From a virus, in IMG/VR virus record IMGVR_UViG_3300032224_000591, positions 64,001-128,000 of that record: a stretch of 64,000 nt of DNA; one strand, given 5' to 3'. Below are positions 14,944 to 59,235 of this stretch, piece after piece. Made by a program: the position numbers and the translations under genes. Within the stretch, counting starts at the first letter, position 1, and each line of letters starts with the position of its first letter. Below the pieces are notes generated by a model. It had not been told where the DNA came from, did no database searches, and was given only the letters and a program-made list of their open reading frames with translations.

Positions 14944-15540
14944 ATGGCCTCAGGTTTCAATATCAGCACATTCAAGGCAAGAGGTCTAACCTCTGGTGGC
15001 GCACGCCCCTCGCTCTTCGAAGTGTATCTAACAATCCCGAGCTTCGTAGCAGCCGCTACGGGCTCGGACACAAAGTTCCGCTTTACCTGCCGCGCAGCAG
15101 CGATCCCGGCAGCAACAATCGGTACGGTCAATGTTCCATACTTTGGTCGTACAATTAAGCTAGCTGGCGACAGAACATTTGCTGACTGGACAGTCACAAT
15201 CATGAACGACGAAGACTTCATCGTTCGTGCAATGTTCGAGAAGTGGTCTAACGAACTTAATAAGCTTCAGGCTAACGTTCGTAAGGCTTATAACTCAGAG
15301 AATGACTATAAGGCAATCCTTAACGTCATTCAGTACAGCAAGGACGGCATTCCGATTCGTTCATACGATATTATCGGTGCGTTCCCAACTTCGGTTGATG
15401 CCATCACTCTTGACTGGGATACTACAAACCAGATCGAGCAGTTCGGTGTTACGTTTGCCTACGACTATTGGCTGCCAACCATTGGTTCAGAGTTAGTTAA
15501 CTCTTACTATGGTGATGCCGTTAGCCCAGTAGCGACCTAA
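14944..15540 (+). CDS. gp19: Tail tube protein gp19
   Basis: ARPSLFEV, GRTIKLAGDRTFADWTVT, YDYW. Confidence 0.95.
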   Translation: MASGFNISTFKARGLTSGGARPSLFEVYLTIPSFVAAATGSDTKFRFTCRAAAIPAATIGTVNVPYFGRTIKLAGDRTFADWTVTIMNDEDFIVRAMFEKWSNELNKLQANVRKAYNSENDYKAILNVIQYSKDGIPIRSYDIIGAFPTSVDAITLDWDTTNQIEQFGVTFAYDYWLPTIGSELVNSYYGDAVSPVAT

Positions 15541-15559
15541 TATCCTGATTGGTTATTGA

Positions 15560-15585
15560 GGGGGAGCTAGTCTCCCCCATTTTTT
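15560..15585 (+). terminator. Rho-independent terminator
   Basis: GGGGGAG-ctagt-CTCCCCC followed by a T-run. Confidence 0.75.
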
Positions 15586-15601
15586 GAAAAAAGGAAAATA
15601 G

Positions 15602-24021: not shown

Positions 24022-25475
24022 TGGAAATAATTGAGATCAGTCGATCTGATCACATATATAATAAGATTAGTGCTGAACCTAGTATCATGATGGAGCTCAA
24101 TGAGCACTTCACATTTGAGGTACCAGGTGCAAAGTTTATGCCATCCTATAAGAGTAAGTTCTGGGATGGTAAGATTCGTTTGTTTAATCCAATGACTGGA
24201 CTATTGTATGCCGGACTTAACTCTAAGGTAGAGAAGTTCGCCAACAGCCGTAACTATCAAATCATCTATACGTCAGACTTCTCGCAGGCAGAGTTCTCTC
24301 TAAAAGAGGCCAATGACTTTATTGACACACTAGGTATCCCCGATAAATACGAGCGTAGAGACTATCAAGTTCAAGCCTTTGCTCACGCAGTACGTAATCA
24401 TAGAGCCTTGATGCTATCGCCGACGGCTTCTGGTAAGTCGTTTATCATATACCTATTAGTGAGATACTATCATGCACGCACTCTTATTATTGTGCCAACT
24501 ACTTCTCTGGTTAGTCAACTTGCCTCTGACTTTGCTGACTATGGTTTTGTATCTGATCGGTTCGTTCATCGAATCTTTGCTGGACAAGATAAACAAACGG
24601 ATAAACCGGTTACCATCTCAACCTGGCAGTCCATATATAAGATGCCTAAAGAGTACTTCCAACAATTTGATGTGGTCGTAGGTGATGAAGCTCACCTCTT
24701 TAAAGCAAAGAGTCTTACTTCTATTATGTCTAAGCTTAGCGGTTGCGCATATCGTTTTGGTTTCACTGGTACTCTTGACGGCGCCGAGACGAACGAACTC
24801 GTGCTTCAGGGTCTCTTCGGCGATGTTAAAAGAGTTACAACAACCTCAGAACTGATCGAGCAGAAACATCTATCAGACTTTAGAATCAAGATCATAGTGC
24901 TCAAGTACTCTGATGAGATTAAGAAGTCGCTGAAGGATACTGACTATCAGGCTGAGATGGACTTCTTAGTCAGGAACGAAGCGCGTAACAACTTTATTAA
25001 GAATCTAGCGTTATCACTTGAGGGTAACACACTTTTGCTGTTTCAATTTGTTGAAAAGCATGGTATAATGTTACATAATGAAATTAAGAAGGCTACAAAT
25101 AAGCCTGTTCACTTTGTCTATGGAGGTGTTGATGGGGATGATCGTGAAGCAATACGTAAGCTCGTGGAAGAGTCGACATCCAGTATTATCGTCGCTTCTT
25201 ACGGAACTTTCTCTACCGGTGTCAACATTCGTAATCTGCATAACGTTATATTTGCAAGTCCTTCAAAATCTAAAATAAGAAACTTACAGTCCATTGGACG
25301 CGGTCTAAGGAAAGCCGAGTCGAAGGAGGAAGCTGTACTCTACGATATAGCCGACGATCTTACGTGGAAGACACGTAAGAACTTTACACTACTTCATTTG
25401 GCAGAACGTGTCAAGATCTACAACGAGGAAGGGTTCGACTACAAGATCTACCAAGTCGCCCTCAAGGAATCATAA
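24021..25475 (+). CDS. uvsW: DNA helicase UvsW
   Basis: WDGKIRL, SPTASGKS, DEAH, LQSIGRGLR. Confidence 0.96.
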   Translation: MEIIEISRSDHIYNKISAEPSIMMELNEHFTFEVPGAKFMPSYKSKFWDGKIRLFNPMTGLLYAGLNSKVEKFANSRNYQIIYTSDFSQAEFSLKEANDFIDTLGIPDKYERRDYQVQAFAHAVRNHRALMLSPTASGKSFIIYLLVRYYHARTLIIVPTTSLVSQLASDFADYGFVSDRFVHRIFAGQDKQTDKPVTISTWQSIYKMPKEYFQQFDVVVGDEAHLFKAKSLTSIMSKLSGCAYRFGFTGTLDGAETNELVLQGLFGDVKRVTTTSELIEQKHLSDFRIKIIVLKYSDEIKKSLKDTDYQAEMDFLVRNEARNNFIKNLALSLEGNTLLLFQFVEKHGIMLHNEIKKATNKPVHFVYGGVDGDDREAIRKLVEESTSSIIVASYGTFSTGVNIRNLHNVIFASPSKSKIRNLQSIGRGLRKAESKEEAVLYDIADDLTWKTRKNFTLLHLAERVKIYNEEGFDYKIYQVALKES

Positions 25476-26047
25476 TGGAAACATATGTTAAACCTAAAGC
25501 TAAAAAGCACTATGTAAATAATAAGGACCTCTACCTTGCTATGGTAGCATGGAAGGAGAAGGTCGAGTTAGCTAAAACTCAAGACAGGCAACAACCTATT
25601 ATTCCAGATTATGTAGGCACGTGCTTTATGTTGATTTGCAATAAGCTATCAACCAAGCCAAACTTTATGAACTACTCTTATAGAGATGAGATGGTAGCTG
25701 ATGCGATCGAGAATTGTGTTGCAGCGGCACACAGCTTTGATCCAGCCAAATCAACCAACCCATTTGCATACTTTACGCAGATTGCATGGAATGCAATGTT
25801 GAGACGTATTGCTAAAGAGAAGAAGCAGTCATACGTCAAGCATAAGAACTTTGAGCATATCAATATGTTTGGCGAATTATCTGCTGAAGTCAACCATGGT
25901 CAGAAACTACACAACGAGTACTCTGAGGATCTAATTAGAAACTTTGAGGAAAAGCTTTTAAAGAACTCTAAGAAGGCTAAAGAAGCCGGTCTTGATAAGT
26001 TTATCGAGGAAGTGAAAAATGAAGAACCTACATCTAGTGCCAGTTAA
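25475..26047 (+). CDS. gp55: Late-transcription sigma factor gp55
   Basis: HYVNNK, PNF.NYSYRDEM, NPFAYFTQI. Confidence 0.95.
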   Translation: METYVKPKAKKHYVNNKDLYLAMVAWKEKVELAKTQDRQQPIIPDYVGTCFMLICNKLSTKPNFMNYSYRDEMVADAIENCVAAAHSFDPAKSTNPFAYFTQIAWNAMLRRIAKEKKQSYVKHKNFEHINMFGELSAEVNHGQKLHNEYSEDLIRNFEEKLLKNSKKAKEAGLDKFIEEVKNEEPTSSAS

Positions 26048-45454: not shown

Positions 45455-45754
45455 ATGCTTAAAGTTGTAGTAGTAGCTACGGTGAGTGCAATTGCACTTG
45501 CTGGTTGTACAGCACGAGAGCAACAGCTGCTTGCAGCGGGCGCCGTAGGTGCAGTTGCTGGTGCGGTTGTTGCTAGCGAGGTGTCTCAGCCTCGTCCATA
45601 CTATGTGCAGGAACGCCCATATTATGTACAGCCCCGTCCTGCATATTATGAAGAGCGTCGCCCAATCTATGTGCAACCTCATCGTCGTCCTCAATGTTTC
45701 TCCACATGGGAAAACACCCATCGTGGTATGGTAGAACGTCGCGTCTGCCGTTAA
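45455..45754 (+). CDS. Lipoprotein with glycine zipper and Pro/Tyr-rich repeats
   Basis: Lipobox LAGC, GAVGAVAGAVV, RPYYVQ repeats; AGGAG RBS. Confidence 0.8.
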   Translation: MLKVVVVATVSAIALAGCTAREQQLLAAGAVGAVAGAVVASEVSQPRPYYVQERPYYVQPRPAYYEERRPIYVQPHRRPQCFSTWENTHRGMVERRVCR

Positions 45755-45761
45755 GGTTTGA

Positions 45762-51912: not shown

Positions 51913-51982
51913 ATAAACACATGAACGCATCGTTATGAAATCCTGATGATTGGTAATCCTCAATTTCATAACGGAGTTTCAG

Positions 51983-53809
51983 ATGAAGAGATTTTTAGTA
52001 GCCCTAATTGGGCTATGCGCATTTACGTGTGCAGCCGTAGCACAGAACCTACCAGCCGGTTCGTTAGGAATCGTCAATAACAATACGCCAAACACATGGC
52101 AGACATTTACCTACTCGTTCACACCATCGACAACAGGTGCTAATTTCGTAGGTTTTGCATTTCGTCAGGATCCAGCATTCTGGACTTTCGACAATGTCAG
52201 ACTAACAGCAGCTGGTTCATCAACCAACCTGCTAACTAACGGTGCCTTTGATACAGGCGGACAGTTCAGTGTAACAACCACTAACGGTCCTTCCTCTATG
52301 CAGGCACCAACTAATTGGGGCGTATGGTATCAAAATGGAACATATCCTGCTGCCGCTGGCACTTGGACTAACGTTGGGGGGACTCATGGTGGCGTATGGT
52401 ATGACGGAGCTGTTGGCTCGTTCGACGGTATCTATCAAGGCGTGGCTCTCCAGGCGGGCACCACTTACACAATTTCTTTTGAAGTTAGCGGGAATCACGC
52501 TGCTGACAATGGTGCTGTTCAGCTTGGCATTTATGGCGGCGCTTGCGCAACTGTAAGTATTGCACCTAATCAGTGCACGATCCCACCATCCGCCGGATTC
52601 ACTACGCTTGCTACACCTGCTCAAGGTGCAGCTGCTGGTGGACCTGCAGTTCCTACTATCGTAAGTGAATTGCCTGGAACTCCTAGTGTATCATCATCTA
52701 GCGCCCCTGGCACATTAGTAACCACAACAGCAAGCACAAGAGGCACTTCAACAACGGCAATCGCCCGTTCAGATGCTGCTGCTAGATCCGTTAACAATAT
52801 CAATATAACAAGAACTACTGTGACCACAGTTACGACGCCGGTCACAACTGTTACCACGCGTACAACTCCTATCGTCACAACGACAACGACTATACCTAGA
52901 ACAGTCACAACGTGGAGCGATGGTACCACAACGACAACTGATGGAACACCGGTTGTCACACGCACAACAACCAATCAGATTGTCACATCATCAGCAATAG
53001 CTAACGATGTACAGTCGACAACGGGAACACAATCACAGTCTGTTAGCTCTAATGGTGCTAAGAGTGCTGTGTCTTATCGTAACAATAATCCATTCATTGT
53101 CGACACACTAAGTCAGAAAGATGGTGCATGGATCAGTCCATCGGCTAGCTACTACAAGTCAGTAGGTAGCATGTCATCAGGTGGCATCGCTGCTGGTTAT
53201 CAATGGACTGTTGAGAATAACACGTTCGGTACTGCATTTGCATACAACAGTGCAAAGAGTGGTGGACTAGTTGGATCTGATGTTCAAGCTGTCACCTACG
53301 ATGGTGTTGCATATGCACTTAGCAAGCAGGATGGTGTTTGGTTCAAGGGAACCATTGGCTATGGTTATGGTGACTACACAACCAACACATCGATCCCACT
53401 ATTTGCCCTGTACAATACGGGTAAGATGAAGCAAAAGTCATACGTAGCTGACCTGACTCTTTACAGTGCAGCAGACTACATAGGCTTCCGTCCACTGATT
53501 GGCGCTACGATCAATAAGAGCCAGATTGAGGCTTCTGCTGCTGGTAGTCCACTATTAGACACTACGGGTGACATCAAGTCTACAACTACGGTAAATCCAT
53601 ATGTAGGTGCTAGATATGACTTCACAGATAGTGTGGGTATCGAGATGAGAGCCACACAGACTAAGGACTTCAAAACAGTCGGTGGAATCCGCGCTGTTGC
53701 CAAGACTGAGCTGTTTGATGGTGTGTTCCTGAATGCTACGGTAGGACTAGATAAGGGAACAGGCTATCAAGCAGCCTCCGGAACACTAGGTATCAAGGTC
53801 GCCTTTTAA
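51983..53809 (+). CDS. Autotransporter-like surface protein (signal peptide, CBM-like passenger, Thr-rich stalk, beta-barrel)
   Basis: AVA-Q signal; NLLTNG.F CBM-like motif; Thr-rich tract; amphipathic strands ending GIKVAF. Confidence 0.75.
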   Translation: MKRFLVALIGLCAFTCAAVAQNLPAGSLGIVNNNTPNTWQTFTYSFTPSTTGANFVGFAFRQDPAFWTFDNVRLTAAGSSTNLLTNGAFDTGGQFSVTTTNGPSSMQAPTNWGVWYQNGTYPAAAGTWTNVGGTHGGVWYDGAVGSFDGIYQGVALQAGTTYTISFEVSGNHAADNGAVQLGIYGGACATVSIAPNQCTIPPSAGFTTLATPAQGAAAGGPAVPTIVSELPGTPSVSSSSAPGTLVTTTASTRGTSTTAIARSDAAARSVNNINITRTTVTTVTTPVTTVTTRTTPIVTTTTTIPRTVTTWSDGTTTTTDGTPVVTRTTTNQIVTSSAIANDVQSTTGTQSQSVSSNGAKSAVSYRNNNPFIVDTLSQKDGAWISPSASYYKSVGSMSSGGIAAGYQWTVENNTFGTAFAYNSAKSGGLVGSDVQAVTYDGVAYALSKQDGVWFKGTIGYGYGDYTTNTSIPLFALYNTGKMKQKSYVADLTLYSAADYIGFRPLIGATINKSQIEASAAGSPLLDTTGDIKSTTTVNPYVGARYDFTDSVGIEMRATQTKDFKTVGGIRAVAKTELFDGVFLNATVGLDKGTGYQAASGTLGIKVAF

Positions 53810-53810
53810 G

Positions 53811-53840
53811 GTGTACAAACTCTCTCCATCGTGGTATAAT
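53811..53840 (+). promoter_or_regulatory. Early promoter
   Basis: GTGTACA...GTGGTATAAT. Confidence 0.8.
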
Positions 53841-53863: not shown

Positions 53864-54094
53864 ATGACTGAAGTTATCCAGTTCCCACTGCAATCTAGAG
53901 ATGCTACGATTATCCAGGGAGTAGCAACTCAGCGGCCTTATAACAAGGCTAAGTACGTTGCCCTCATCGAGAGGTTCTTGACTGAGGATGATTTCGATTT
54001 TGTGATGAGAGCCATTGAGGAACCATTCCTCTATGCTGCTCTTGAGCCTCAACTGCAAAAGATCGTTGACTGTTACTTTAGTTACGATTCTTGA
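53864..54094 (+). CDS. Hypothetical protein
   Basis: GGAG RBS; VIQFP N-terminus. Confidence 0.7.
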   Translation: MTEVIQFPLQSRDATIIQGVATQRPYNKAKYVALIERFLTEDDFDFVMRAIEEPFLYAALEPQLQKIVDCYFSYDS

Positions 54095-54130
54095 TGTATA
54101 AATAAACTTACGAACACGCAAAGGTGCACC

Positions 54131-54259
54131 ATGACTAAGCAGATTACACATCGTAATCCAGTTGCTAAGGCTCTGAAGAGCCAGTCTTGCCGTGCGCGTG
54201 TGGTCGCTGCTAAACGCGGCAAGGGTTCCTACAAACGTCAGAGCTTCAAAAAGTTCTGA
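54131..54259 (+). CDS. arfA: ArfA-like alternative ribosome rescue factor (42 aa, not in ORF track)
   Basis: MTKQITHRNPVAKALKSQSCRARVVAAKRGKGSYKRQSFKKF*, matching ArfA N....L......R.RV....KGKGSY.R; TATAAATA at 54097 and AAGGT RBS. Confidence 0.7.
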   Translation: MTKQITHRNPVAKALKSQSCRARVVAAKRGKGSYKRQSFKKF

Positions 54260-54265
54260 GGTCAC

Positions 54266-54342
54266 GGATCCTTAGCTCAGTAGGTTAGAGCAGCGGTCTT
54301 TTAAACCGACGGTCCCGGGTTCGAATCCCGGAGGATCCACCA
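54266..54342 (+). tRNA. tRNA-Lys(UUU)
   Basis: ctTTTaa loop, CCA. Confidence 0.95.
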
Positions 54343-54487: not shown

Positions 54488-55039
54488 ATGCAAAAGACTA
54501 TCATTACGGCGCTTGTTCTTCTTGCGTCGACAGCAGTGGCTTCGGCTACTGATCTGCCAAGCAAGACGAAGGCACCGTCTCTACCCACTCTAGCTCAGTC
54601 AACAGACTTCTACGCTGGTGTGAATGCAGGCGGTAACTTCAACGATGCACGCGTCTATTCTGGTGGTGCTGTTGCTGGCTGGAACGTCCTACCGTTCCTC
54701 GCAGTAGAAGGTACATACGACTTTTCTGTTCCACAGAATAAGATCAAGGGTGATTACAACTACCAGAATACGGTTGCTGTAAACGCTGTACCGCAGTACA
54801 AGGTTCCCGCTCTTCCAGTCACTGTCTATGCACTAGGCGGCGCTGGCTATCGCTGGAACACTGCAGCTACCGTAGCGGATATTTCCGTTTATAACTTCGG
54901 TGCTGGTGCTAAGTATGAGTTTGCTAAGGGGATCGAAATCGATGGTCGCTACCGTCGTATTGATGCCATTGAGTCAAAGAACCGTACTTCGACTTCGGCC
55001 GAAGATCGTGCTACGATTGGTGTGAACGCAAAGTTCTAA
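54488..55039 (+). CDS. Outer-membrane 8-stranded beta-barrel protein (Omp25/RopB-like)
   Basis: Signal ASA-TDLPSK..AP, FYAGVNAG, terminal GVNAKF. Confidence 0.8.
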   Translation: MQKTIITALVLLASTAVASATDLPSKTKAPSLPTLAQSTDFYAGVNAGGNFNDARVYSGGAVAGWNVLPFLAVEGTYDFSVPQNKIKGDYNYQNTVAVNAVPQYKVPALPVTVYALGGAGYRWNTAATVADISVYNFGAGAKYEFAKGIEIDGRYRRIDAIESKNRTSTSAEDRATIGVNAKF

Positions 55040-58940: not shown

Positions 58941-59225
58941 ATGCCTTTTGGTGGATATAACCCATTAGATGATGGCGAGTATGAAGATTTTTCGCCATGG
59001 TTCAAACCTGAAAGAAAAGTGGAAAAAGTAGTGACAGAGACTTTAACATTCACCTGCAAAGAACTATACGACCTCTATAAGTGGATTGATGCTATGGATC
59101 CAAAGCCGCATCTTATTAAGATCTATAGCACGCAGACCGGCATCGGTCCATCTCTGCGTGCTGAGATTGATAACGGTGAAGGTGAAGGGATCTATAAGGA
59201 CTTTACCGACTATGAGAGTTGGTAA
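58941..59225 (+). CDS. Hypothetical protein
   Basis: TGIG...D.TDYESW C-terminus. Confidence 0.7.
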   Translation: MPFGGYNPLDDGEYEDFSPWFKPERKVEKVVTETLTFTCKELYDLYKWIDAMDPKPHLIKIYSTQTGIGPSLRAEIDNGEGEGIYKDFTDYESW

Positions 59226-59235
59226 ATAGAGTAAT

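Follow-up and report, generated by a model that had tools for sequence, protein, structure and literature searches.

The locus and its genes

A small gene of 42 codons is located on the plus strand at positions 54131-54259 of the window, the 64,000-nucleotide stretch of viral DNA analysed here, which covers bases 64,001-128,000 of a complete virus record of 167,756 bp with terminal repeats. The gene runs from an ATG start to a TGA stop, and its product was placed by homology and conservation in an alphaproteobacterial subtype of ArfA-like proteins, NPxA[KR]. A T4-type late promoter, TATAAATA, is found on the same strand at 54097-54104, 26 nt before the ATG, and a weak Shine-Dalgarno sequence, AAAGGTG (-6.3 kcal/mol; GGTG or GGAG in relatives), at 54120-54126. 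Six nucleotides after the stop, a tRNA-Lys(UUU) gene with CCA occupies 54266-54342 of the plus strand. The initial annotation had described this reading frame with its motifs, the exact late promoter, the ribosome-binding site (RBS) and the distance to the tRNA, and all of them were recovered. It had also called the gene unannotated, which is true solely of the first-stage ORF track; on public contigs the gene is called by gene callers.

The promoter 8-mer TATAAATA is not enriched by raw count (16 copies, against 13 for its reversed control). It marks the starts of reading frames, being placed before an ORF start in 11 of its 16 copies, as compared with 4/13, 0/10 and 3/14 for control 8-mers (0-31%). 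The TAAATA promoter core is kept in 25/25 loci of the clade.

The ArfA-like ORF is a real, conserved gene. Among diverged relatives, pN is 0.09-0.16 and pS is 0.27-0.51, indicating purifying selection. All 25 loci share the same frame, length and stop position, and the RBS is kept. The match to Pfam ArfA described below, the pN below pS and the calls on public contigs together show that the gene is more than a chance reading frame. The order of gene, TGA, 6-7 nt and tRNA-Lys(UUU) is likewise fixed in the 25 loci, many of which are near-identical, with protein identity down to 76%. The link to a tRNA is absent from homologues outside the clade. The 6-nt gap between ORF and tRNA was considered as a special device and rejected, as other such gaps in the window measure 0, 3, 6 and 7 nt.

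Upstream, a gene of 76 aa that is conserved in the clade lies on the plus strand at 53864-54094, behind a sigma70-like promoter at 53812-53840. No terminator was found between this gene and the ArfA-like gene, so that read-through from the sigma70-like promoter could add early expression, a timing also seen in pelagiphage HTVC027P gp30, which is expressed early and late. Downstream of the tRNA, an outer-membrane beta-barrel gene resembling Rhizobiales porins, with its own sigma70-like promoter, is encoded on the plus strand at 54488-55039. On its other side, the unit of ArfA-like gene and tRNA is flanked by a gene for a 619-aa secreted-type protein (51950-53809) with a Thr-rich stalk and a barrel-like C-terminus, which gave no significant Pfam or PHROG match.

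The phage comes from a lake and is T4-like. Its major capsid protein shares 63-68% identity with those of DLP_6, Mosig and the Sinorhizobium phages phiM12 and phiN3, and a T4-type late sigma factor (phrog_234) is encoded at 25475-26047. The porin gene serves as a host marker. Among phages it matched Sinorhizobium, Ochrobactrum and Agrobacterium phages only; its matches in cellular genomes were weak, and the DNA of those genomes resembles Methylobacterium, Rhizobium and Microvirga. The porin matches point to a probable host among the Rhizobiales, in the Alphaproteobacteria. Within the window, 29 tRNAs are encoded. A two-piece tmRNA of the alpha type (RF01849, 106.7 bits), with the tag ANDN...ALAA, is located outside the window at genome positions 15208-15595; matches to RF00023 were rejected as tRNAs or a fragment. 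Searches of the phage genome for the RF-1 family, SmpB, RtcB and a Cr30-type RNA ligase gave no match.

Homology to ArfA

The 42-aa protein scored 25.3 bits against Pfam ArfA (PF03889; E 1.1e-5), 0.2 bits under the gathering cut-off of 25.5. Relatives that are 88% identical and carry Phe at protein position 20, where the present protein has Cys20, scored 31.0 and 30.4 bits and pass the cut-off. A search of NCBIfam with the 42-aa protein gave no match. When a family profile of 32 sequences was compared with the PDB, six E. coli ArfA sequences were found at E 1e-8 to 3e-8, and the next match was at 0.26. The profile match that the initial annotation proposed to look for is present for close relatives and falls marginally short for this copy, and its claim of ArfA homology is borne out by a profile that matches only E. 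coli ArfA in the PDB. The top ESM Atlas clusters for the phage protein are also ArfA (0.93). PDB matches to AlphaRep proteins were rejected as repeat artefacts.

The profile alignment to E. coli ArfA (E about 1.5e-8) is ungapped over residues 20-45, and residue n of the phage protein corresponds to E. coli residue n+5. Compared with E. coli ArfA (YhdL; PF03889; PDB 5H5U, 5MDV, 5MGP, 5U4I and 7OJ0), ungapped homology extends over residues 14-47. Asn14, hydrophobic residues at 16 and 20, Arg26, Arg28-Val29, GKGSY and Arg41 are kept. The channel segment KRGKGSYKR, at residues 28-36 of the phage protein, corresponds to the basic GKGSYxR segment that serves as the anchor. The segment that forms a strand with domain 2 of RF2 reads A-R-V-V in the phage protein and Q-R-V-E in E. 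coli (27-30), a likeness of sequence only. The last residue, F42, is aligned with Asn47 of E. coli, where the shortest active form of ArfA ends; truncation at 40 is inactive (PMC5378476). A real stop shortly after the motif, as first noted, is therefore found at the minimal active length, and the reported lack of the C-terminal tail also holds: the phage gene has neither the hydrophobic tail nor the in-ORF RNase III stem or terminator through which E. coli arfA is kept under non-stop control.

Other features differ from E. coli ArfA. Lys (the phage protein's own residue Lys13) replaces Ala18, Pro is found at 15, and residues 1-5 and Ile11 (Thr at 11) are missing, so that the N-terminal minidomain (2-16) is absent. 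The patch L19/L24/F25, which binds Trp319 of RF2 in E. coli (PMC5378476), reads Ala/Ser/Cys, and Pro23 is absent. The KH motif (44-45) is replaced by Phe-Lys; the motif itself is found in 21/42 bacterial ArfAs. Position 18 is Ala or Ser in 42/42 gamma-type bacterial ArfAs sampled, and Lys or Arg in 60/63 viral and 116/119 metagenomic homologues. By sequence, the 42-aa protein is homologous to ArfA; it is not a canonical ArfA on the same comparison and should not be filed as such. Activation of RF2 is not to be assumed from KGKGS alone, because Ala18, the N-terminal minidomain and KH are missing.

AlphaFold2 gave a short helix at residues 10-15 only (pTM 0.31), which is uninformative for a peptide of the kind that folds on the ribosome. 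The predicted complex of the family alignment with E. coli RF2 (110-365) scored 0.07, which gives no verdict and carries no weight as evidence.

These substitutions raise two other readings of the peptide. The A18T variant of E. coli ArfA binds RF2 without activating or opening it (PMC5378476). The phage protein could be a natural mimic of A18T, a non-activating plug that fills the vacant mRNA channel and keeps RF2 in its compact form. It would then compete with host SmpB-tmRNA or ArfB, and would block tagging or park ribosomes. Such a dominant-negative plug is a serious rival because A18T binds RF2 yet cannot open it, and Lys18, the missing minidomain and the degraded Trp319 patch, together with the retained channel anchor and RF2 strand, count in its favour (PMC5378476). 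However, a plug would work against the tmRNA that the phage itself carries, and position 18 is variable in the subtype whereas Ala17 hardly varies, a pattern suggestive of different packing and not of a designed block. This reading is judged unlikely, though a real contender, and the chromosomal members described below bear on it further.

The second reading is that the basic half binds the ribosome and the peptide then acts by another route. An ArfT-like route would recruit RF1 or either release factor; alternatively, vacant ribosomes would be protected or hibernated without release. The altered residues L19, L24 and F25 are those that give RF2 specificity, and related cellular peptides lack the GKGS loop altogether. 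However, most homologues retain an aromatic residue at position 25 (54/63 viral and 118/119 metagenomic; Phe in most relatives, Cys here), and the R-V-V strand is conserved in homologues. Action by such a route is considered improbable.

An ArfA-like subtype in phages and Alphaproteobacteria

Phage ArfA-like genes as such have already been reported. Citromicrobium phage RXM g10 (PMC8953757) and pelagiphage HTVC027P gp30 (PMC12753301) are small ArfA-domain genes in phages of Alphaproteobacteria and were proposed to aid phage translation. Both are domain annotations, RXM g10 being known here by annotation alone, whereas transcription timing is also available for gp30, which is highly transcribed and expressed early and late (PMC12753301). 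The latter is of the same NPxAK subtype and has its own stop; unlike the present gene, it has no tRNA link. No functional test of a phage ArfA was found in the literature searched.

The subtype was defined here by N14-P15-x-A17-[KR]18, a short N-terminus, GKGS[YF]xR and usually its own stop, and the 42-aa phage protein fits this definition. At least 7,694 protein clusters belong to the subtype, and at least 150 viral loci of the family were confirmed. Most viral members are short with their own stop, and 55/63 end by residue 55. A scan of genome contigs with a narrow N-terminal pattern gave 4 loci without GKGS, from which the family had seemed purely viral; this was overturned by profile searches. 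With a broader profile, the subtype was found on the chromosomes of 25/401 sampled Alphaproteobacteria (about 6%), a count in which some of the 25 matches may be prophages or contamination. ArfA has been described as restricted to gamma- and betaproteobacteria, and a 2024 survey, which used nucleotide profiles, reported 0/2,376 Alphaproteobacteria (PMC11633108). The chromosomal copies, as identified by sequence, conflict with that figure.

Within the subtype, position 18 varies (A, K, R, E or F), and many chromosomal members keep KH. Three loci (L205, L208 and L213, with Phe, Arg and Lys at position 18, respectively) carry a hairpin and U-run within the ORF. A fourth (L160) combines Lys18 and KH with an in-ORF hairpin and a hydrophobic tail, and its neighbours are non-phage genes (DUF3108, an amidohydrolase and msrP). 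The arrangement in these four loci is that of arfA and brfA, which are non-stop genes controlled by tmRNA. Wherever the surroundings of chromosomal copies were inspected, the adjacent genes were of non-phage type, with housekeeping genes such as rmuC and def among them. Chromosomal members with in-ORF terminators favour true rescue activity, since a non-stop design suits a back-up of tmRNA. They also speak against the plug, as Lys/Arg18 is shared with chromosomal alphaproteobacterial members, some of which have non-stop-type terminators.

Several further ArfA-like loci were observed. In Rhizobiales-order genomes, a small conserved chromosomal ORF lies by rmuC (L180:1462-1617, L182:1465-1623 and L185:1438-1611; def flanks it on the other side in the latter two), with an NPxA[KR] start, a shortened GKGS loop and then YxRxP[KR]H; it may be a cryptic factor of the ArfA type. 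Short ArfA-like genes with their own stop share a non-phage-looking locus in three genomes of 1.2-1.3 Mb and 25-30% GC (L191, L192 and L207), which are probably SAR11, and one protein (P0110) is named by NCBI as ArfA of Ca. Pelagibacter. The N-terminal half only, without GKGS, is found in Thiobacillus, other bacteria and Paceibacteria (L109, L110, L179, L107 and L108); L179 has a terminator-like hairpin just 5' of the stop. DUF7230 matches the N-terminal half of the window's protein weakly.

In a further set (P0007, P0008, L025, L035, L070, L073 and L074), ArfA-like units are tandem-duplicated or fused to longer basic viral proteins of 136-142 aa. In Roseobacter phage CRP-212 (MZ892988.1; L002:2495-2614), the acidic C-terminal end of gp38 is overprinted in the +1 frame by a complete ArfA-like ORF, which contains KH and scores 31.6 bits, above the Pfam cut-off; the same overprinted ORF and upstream sequence are found in three viral contigs (L038, L046 and L050). 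Caulobacter phage Cr30 (KF301602.1; L003:2944-3099) has an unannotated ArfA-like ORF of 27.3 bits, and the region around it also holds two genes for RNA ligases.

Predicted structure of the message

Two RNA structures were predicted on the plus strand within the ArfA-like gene. The first, at 54124-54197, would sequester the RBS and start codon through pairing of 54124-54129 with 54192-54197 (codons 21-23) and of 54133-54136 with 54183-54186 (codons 18-19). The second is a conserved 9-bp hairpin without a U-run at 54238-54259, with the UGA stop in its 3' arm. The RNA from RBS to stop folds at -55.1 kcal/mol, as compared with -32.4 +/- 4.3 for synonymous recodings, and the corresponding RNAs of five relatives are also within the top 3%. 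The 5' structure has a z of -3.6 against synonymous recodings, the lowest of 97 gene starts, with most of the RBS and start in predicted pairs. Similarly, the 3' hairpin ranks first in stability among 121 gene ends and keeps 7-9 of its 9 pairs in all relatives.

Across 13 related sequences, which represent few independent events and from which the structure itself was derived, 94% of cells pair; 0/500 shuffles reach that value, and slid controls give 23-43%. Four pairs change on both sides in this set, including two compensatory pairs in the RBS helix. The synonymous third position of Arg21 covaries with the RBS spacer, and in the 3' hairpin the Gln37 codon covaries with the last-Phe codon, also synonymously. 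The covariation evidence for both predicted structures is suggestive. Both are specific to the clade: among 50 viral homologues from elsewhere, only about 2 have one or the other.

Strong folding over the RBS and start also raises the reading that the gene is barely translated. Selection would then act chiefly to maintain a structured pre-tRNA leader, with the peptide as a decaying passenger, as the Phe-to-Cys change in the window's copy might suggest. However, the low pN relative to pS, the frame, length and stop fixed at every clade locus, the kept RBS and the high transcription of the HTVC027P homologue all stand against a passenger, and this reading is very unlikely. A tight RBS stem would also suit a harmful product such as the plug.

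Hairpins of about -10 kcal/mol were also found 5' of tRNA-Asn and tRNA-Val in the window (45725-45761 and about 59200-59235), in both cases over the end of the upstream frame. The 3' hairpin was rejected as a terminator, having no U-run, and as an ArfA-specific control, in view of these similar hairpins. A cut by RNase III in a 3' stem of 9-11 bp seems unlikely. Because similar hairpins precede tRNA-Asn and tRNA-Val, the predicted 3' hairpin most likely protects the mRNA end created by RNase P and keeps the stop intact. The tRNA-proximal hairpins may serve more generally to protect the ends of mRNAs after cleavage by RNase P.

The predicted 5' stem argues for control at initiation. The initial annotation had proposed an unregulated rescue factor; given that the stem covering the RBS and start codon is conserved and covarying, and that a hairpin covers the stop, the gene is probably not that.

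The neighbouring tRNA-Lys(UUU)

The tRNA-Lys(UUU) reads U36AAACC41 with a U31-A39 pair in 25/25 loci. Among sampled host-order genomes with a match, an A31-U39 copy was present in 104/104, and the sole U31-A39 match is a second copy. The Thr(UGU) and Asn(GUU) tRNAs of the phage keep U39. In phage T5, tRNA-Lys(UUU) resists the PARIS nuclease AriB, and U39A alone abolishes cleavage; resistance depends also on distal positions (PMC12409363). The T5 tRNA-Lys has the same U36AAACC41 run (U39A, C41), which is absent from standard host tRNA-Lys, although T5 and the present phage infect different host classes. As this T5-type run differs from the sampled host tRNAs, it supports an anti-tRNase role for the phage tRNA-Lys. 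The defence idea of the initial annotation appears plausible for the ArfA-tRNA unit as a whole. The tRNA sequence does not show counter-defence by the peptide itself, and the sequence of this neighbouring tRNA is the sole support for an anti-defence function.

A more elaborate proposal joins the tRNA to the RBS stem in a response to tRNA attack. One late transcript would yield both a nuclease-resistant tRNA-Lys(UUU) and an ArfA gated by lysine supply, sensing tRNA damage instead of being under tmRNA feedback. An anticodon nuclease would deplete tRNA-Lys(UUU) and cause pauses at AAA codons 28 and 35, which are invariant in the gene; the paused ribosomes would cover codons 21-23, prevent the RBS stem from closing and so increase the amount of ArfA made. 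We give this proposal only a slim chance.

Proposed mechanism of ribosome rescue

From the gene, its homology and conservation, the covarying RNA pairing, the tRNA sequence and the tmRNA, we infer co-transcription, RNase P processing, roles for both RNA structures, ribosome binding, and recruitment and activation of RF2. The preferred reading, considered fairly probable from the sequence comparisons, is that the 42-aa peptide has ArfA-type rescue activity. The gene would be transcribed late together with tRNA-Lys(UUU), and RNase P would free the tRNA, leaving an mRNA that ends 6 nt past the stop. The 3' hairpin would block removal of the stop by exonucleases. The preserved stop would give the protein its proper C-terminus and an escape from the tmRNA feedback that silences E. 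coli arfA; escape from this feedback had been suggested from the start, and it agrees with a stop preserved by the hairpin as read here. Output would be limited at initiation by the stem over the RBS. In this respect too, the phage gene differs from E. coli arfA: it has a late promoter, an RBS-sequestering stem and a place in a pre-tRNA leader.

On host ribosomes stalled on truncated mRNA, the basic C-terminal half would enter the empty mRNA channel, residues 22-25 would add a strand to host RF2, and RF2 would release the peptide. Together with the phage tmRNA and the 29 tRNAs in the window, the peptide would keep ribosomes cycling during late synthesis. The alpha-type tmRNA indicates that the phage invests in rescue.

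Lys18, the degraded Trp319 patch, the lack of Pro23, Ile11 and KH, the score just under the Pfam cut-off and the paired RBS and start count against rescue. A precedent is provided by BrfA of B. subtilis, compared here by description, which activates RF2 via a different N-terminus, with an Arg next to C1914 (PMC6881298). BrfA is an RF2-recruiting rescue peptide with a non-ArfA N-terminus, as here, and shows that a basic residue can lie near C1914 of H69; it differs from the phage protein in its long N-terminal helix, its KH and the terminator within its ORF. ArfA-RF2 and BrfA-RF2 pairs have low interspecies compatibility, and complementation in E. coli may therefore give a false negative (PMC6881298).

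Significance

Beyond the phage ArfA-like genes already reported, the analysis contributes an alphaproteobacterial subtype that has members on chromosomes, the question posed by the loss of Ala18, the predicted structure of the mRNA and a T5-like tRNA. The subtype has been overlooked and is common in aquatic phages. Cr30, a cultured Caulobacter phage carrying an unannotated homologue, offers a cheap test, and synthetic lethality of ssrA and arfB is established in Caulobacter (PMC4235212). If the peptide is active, RF2 would be switchable without Ala18 and the E. coli minidomain, and ribosome rescue would be part of the phage translation kit.
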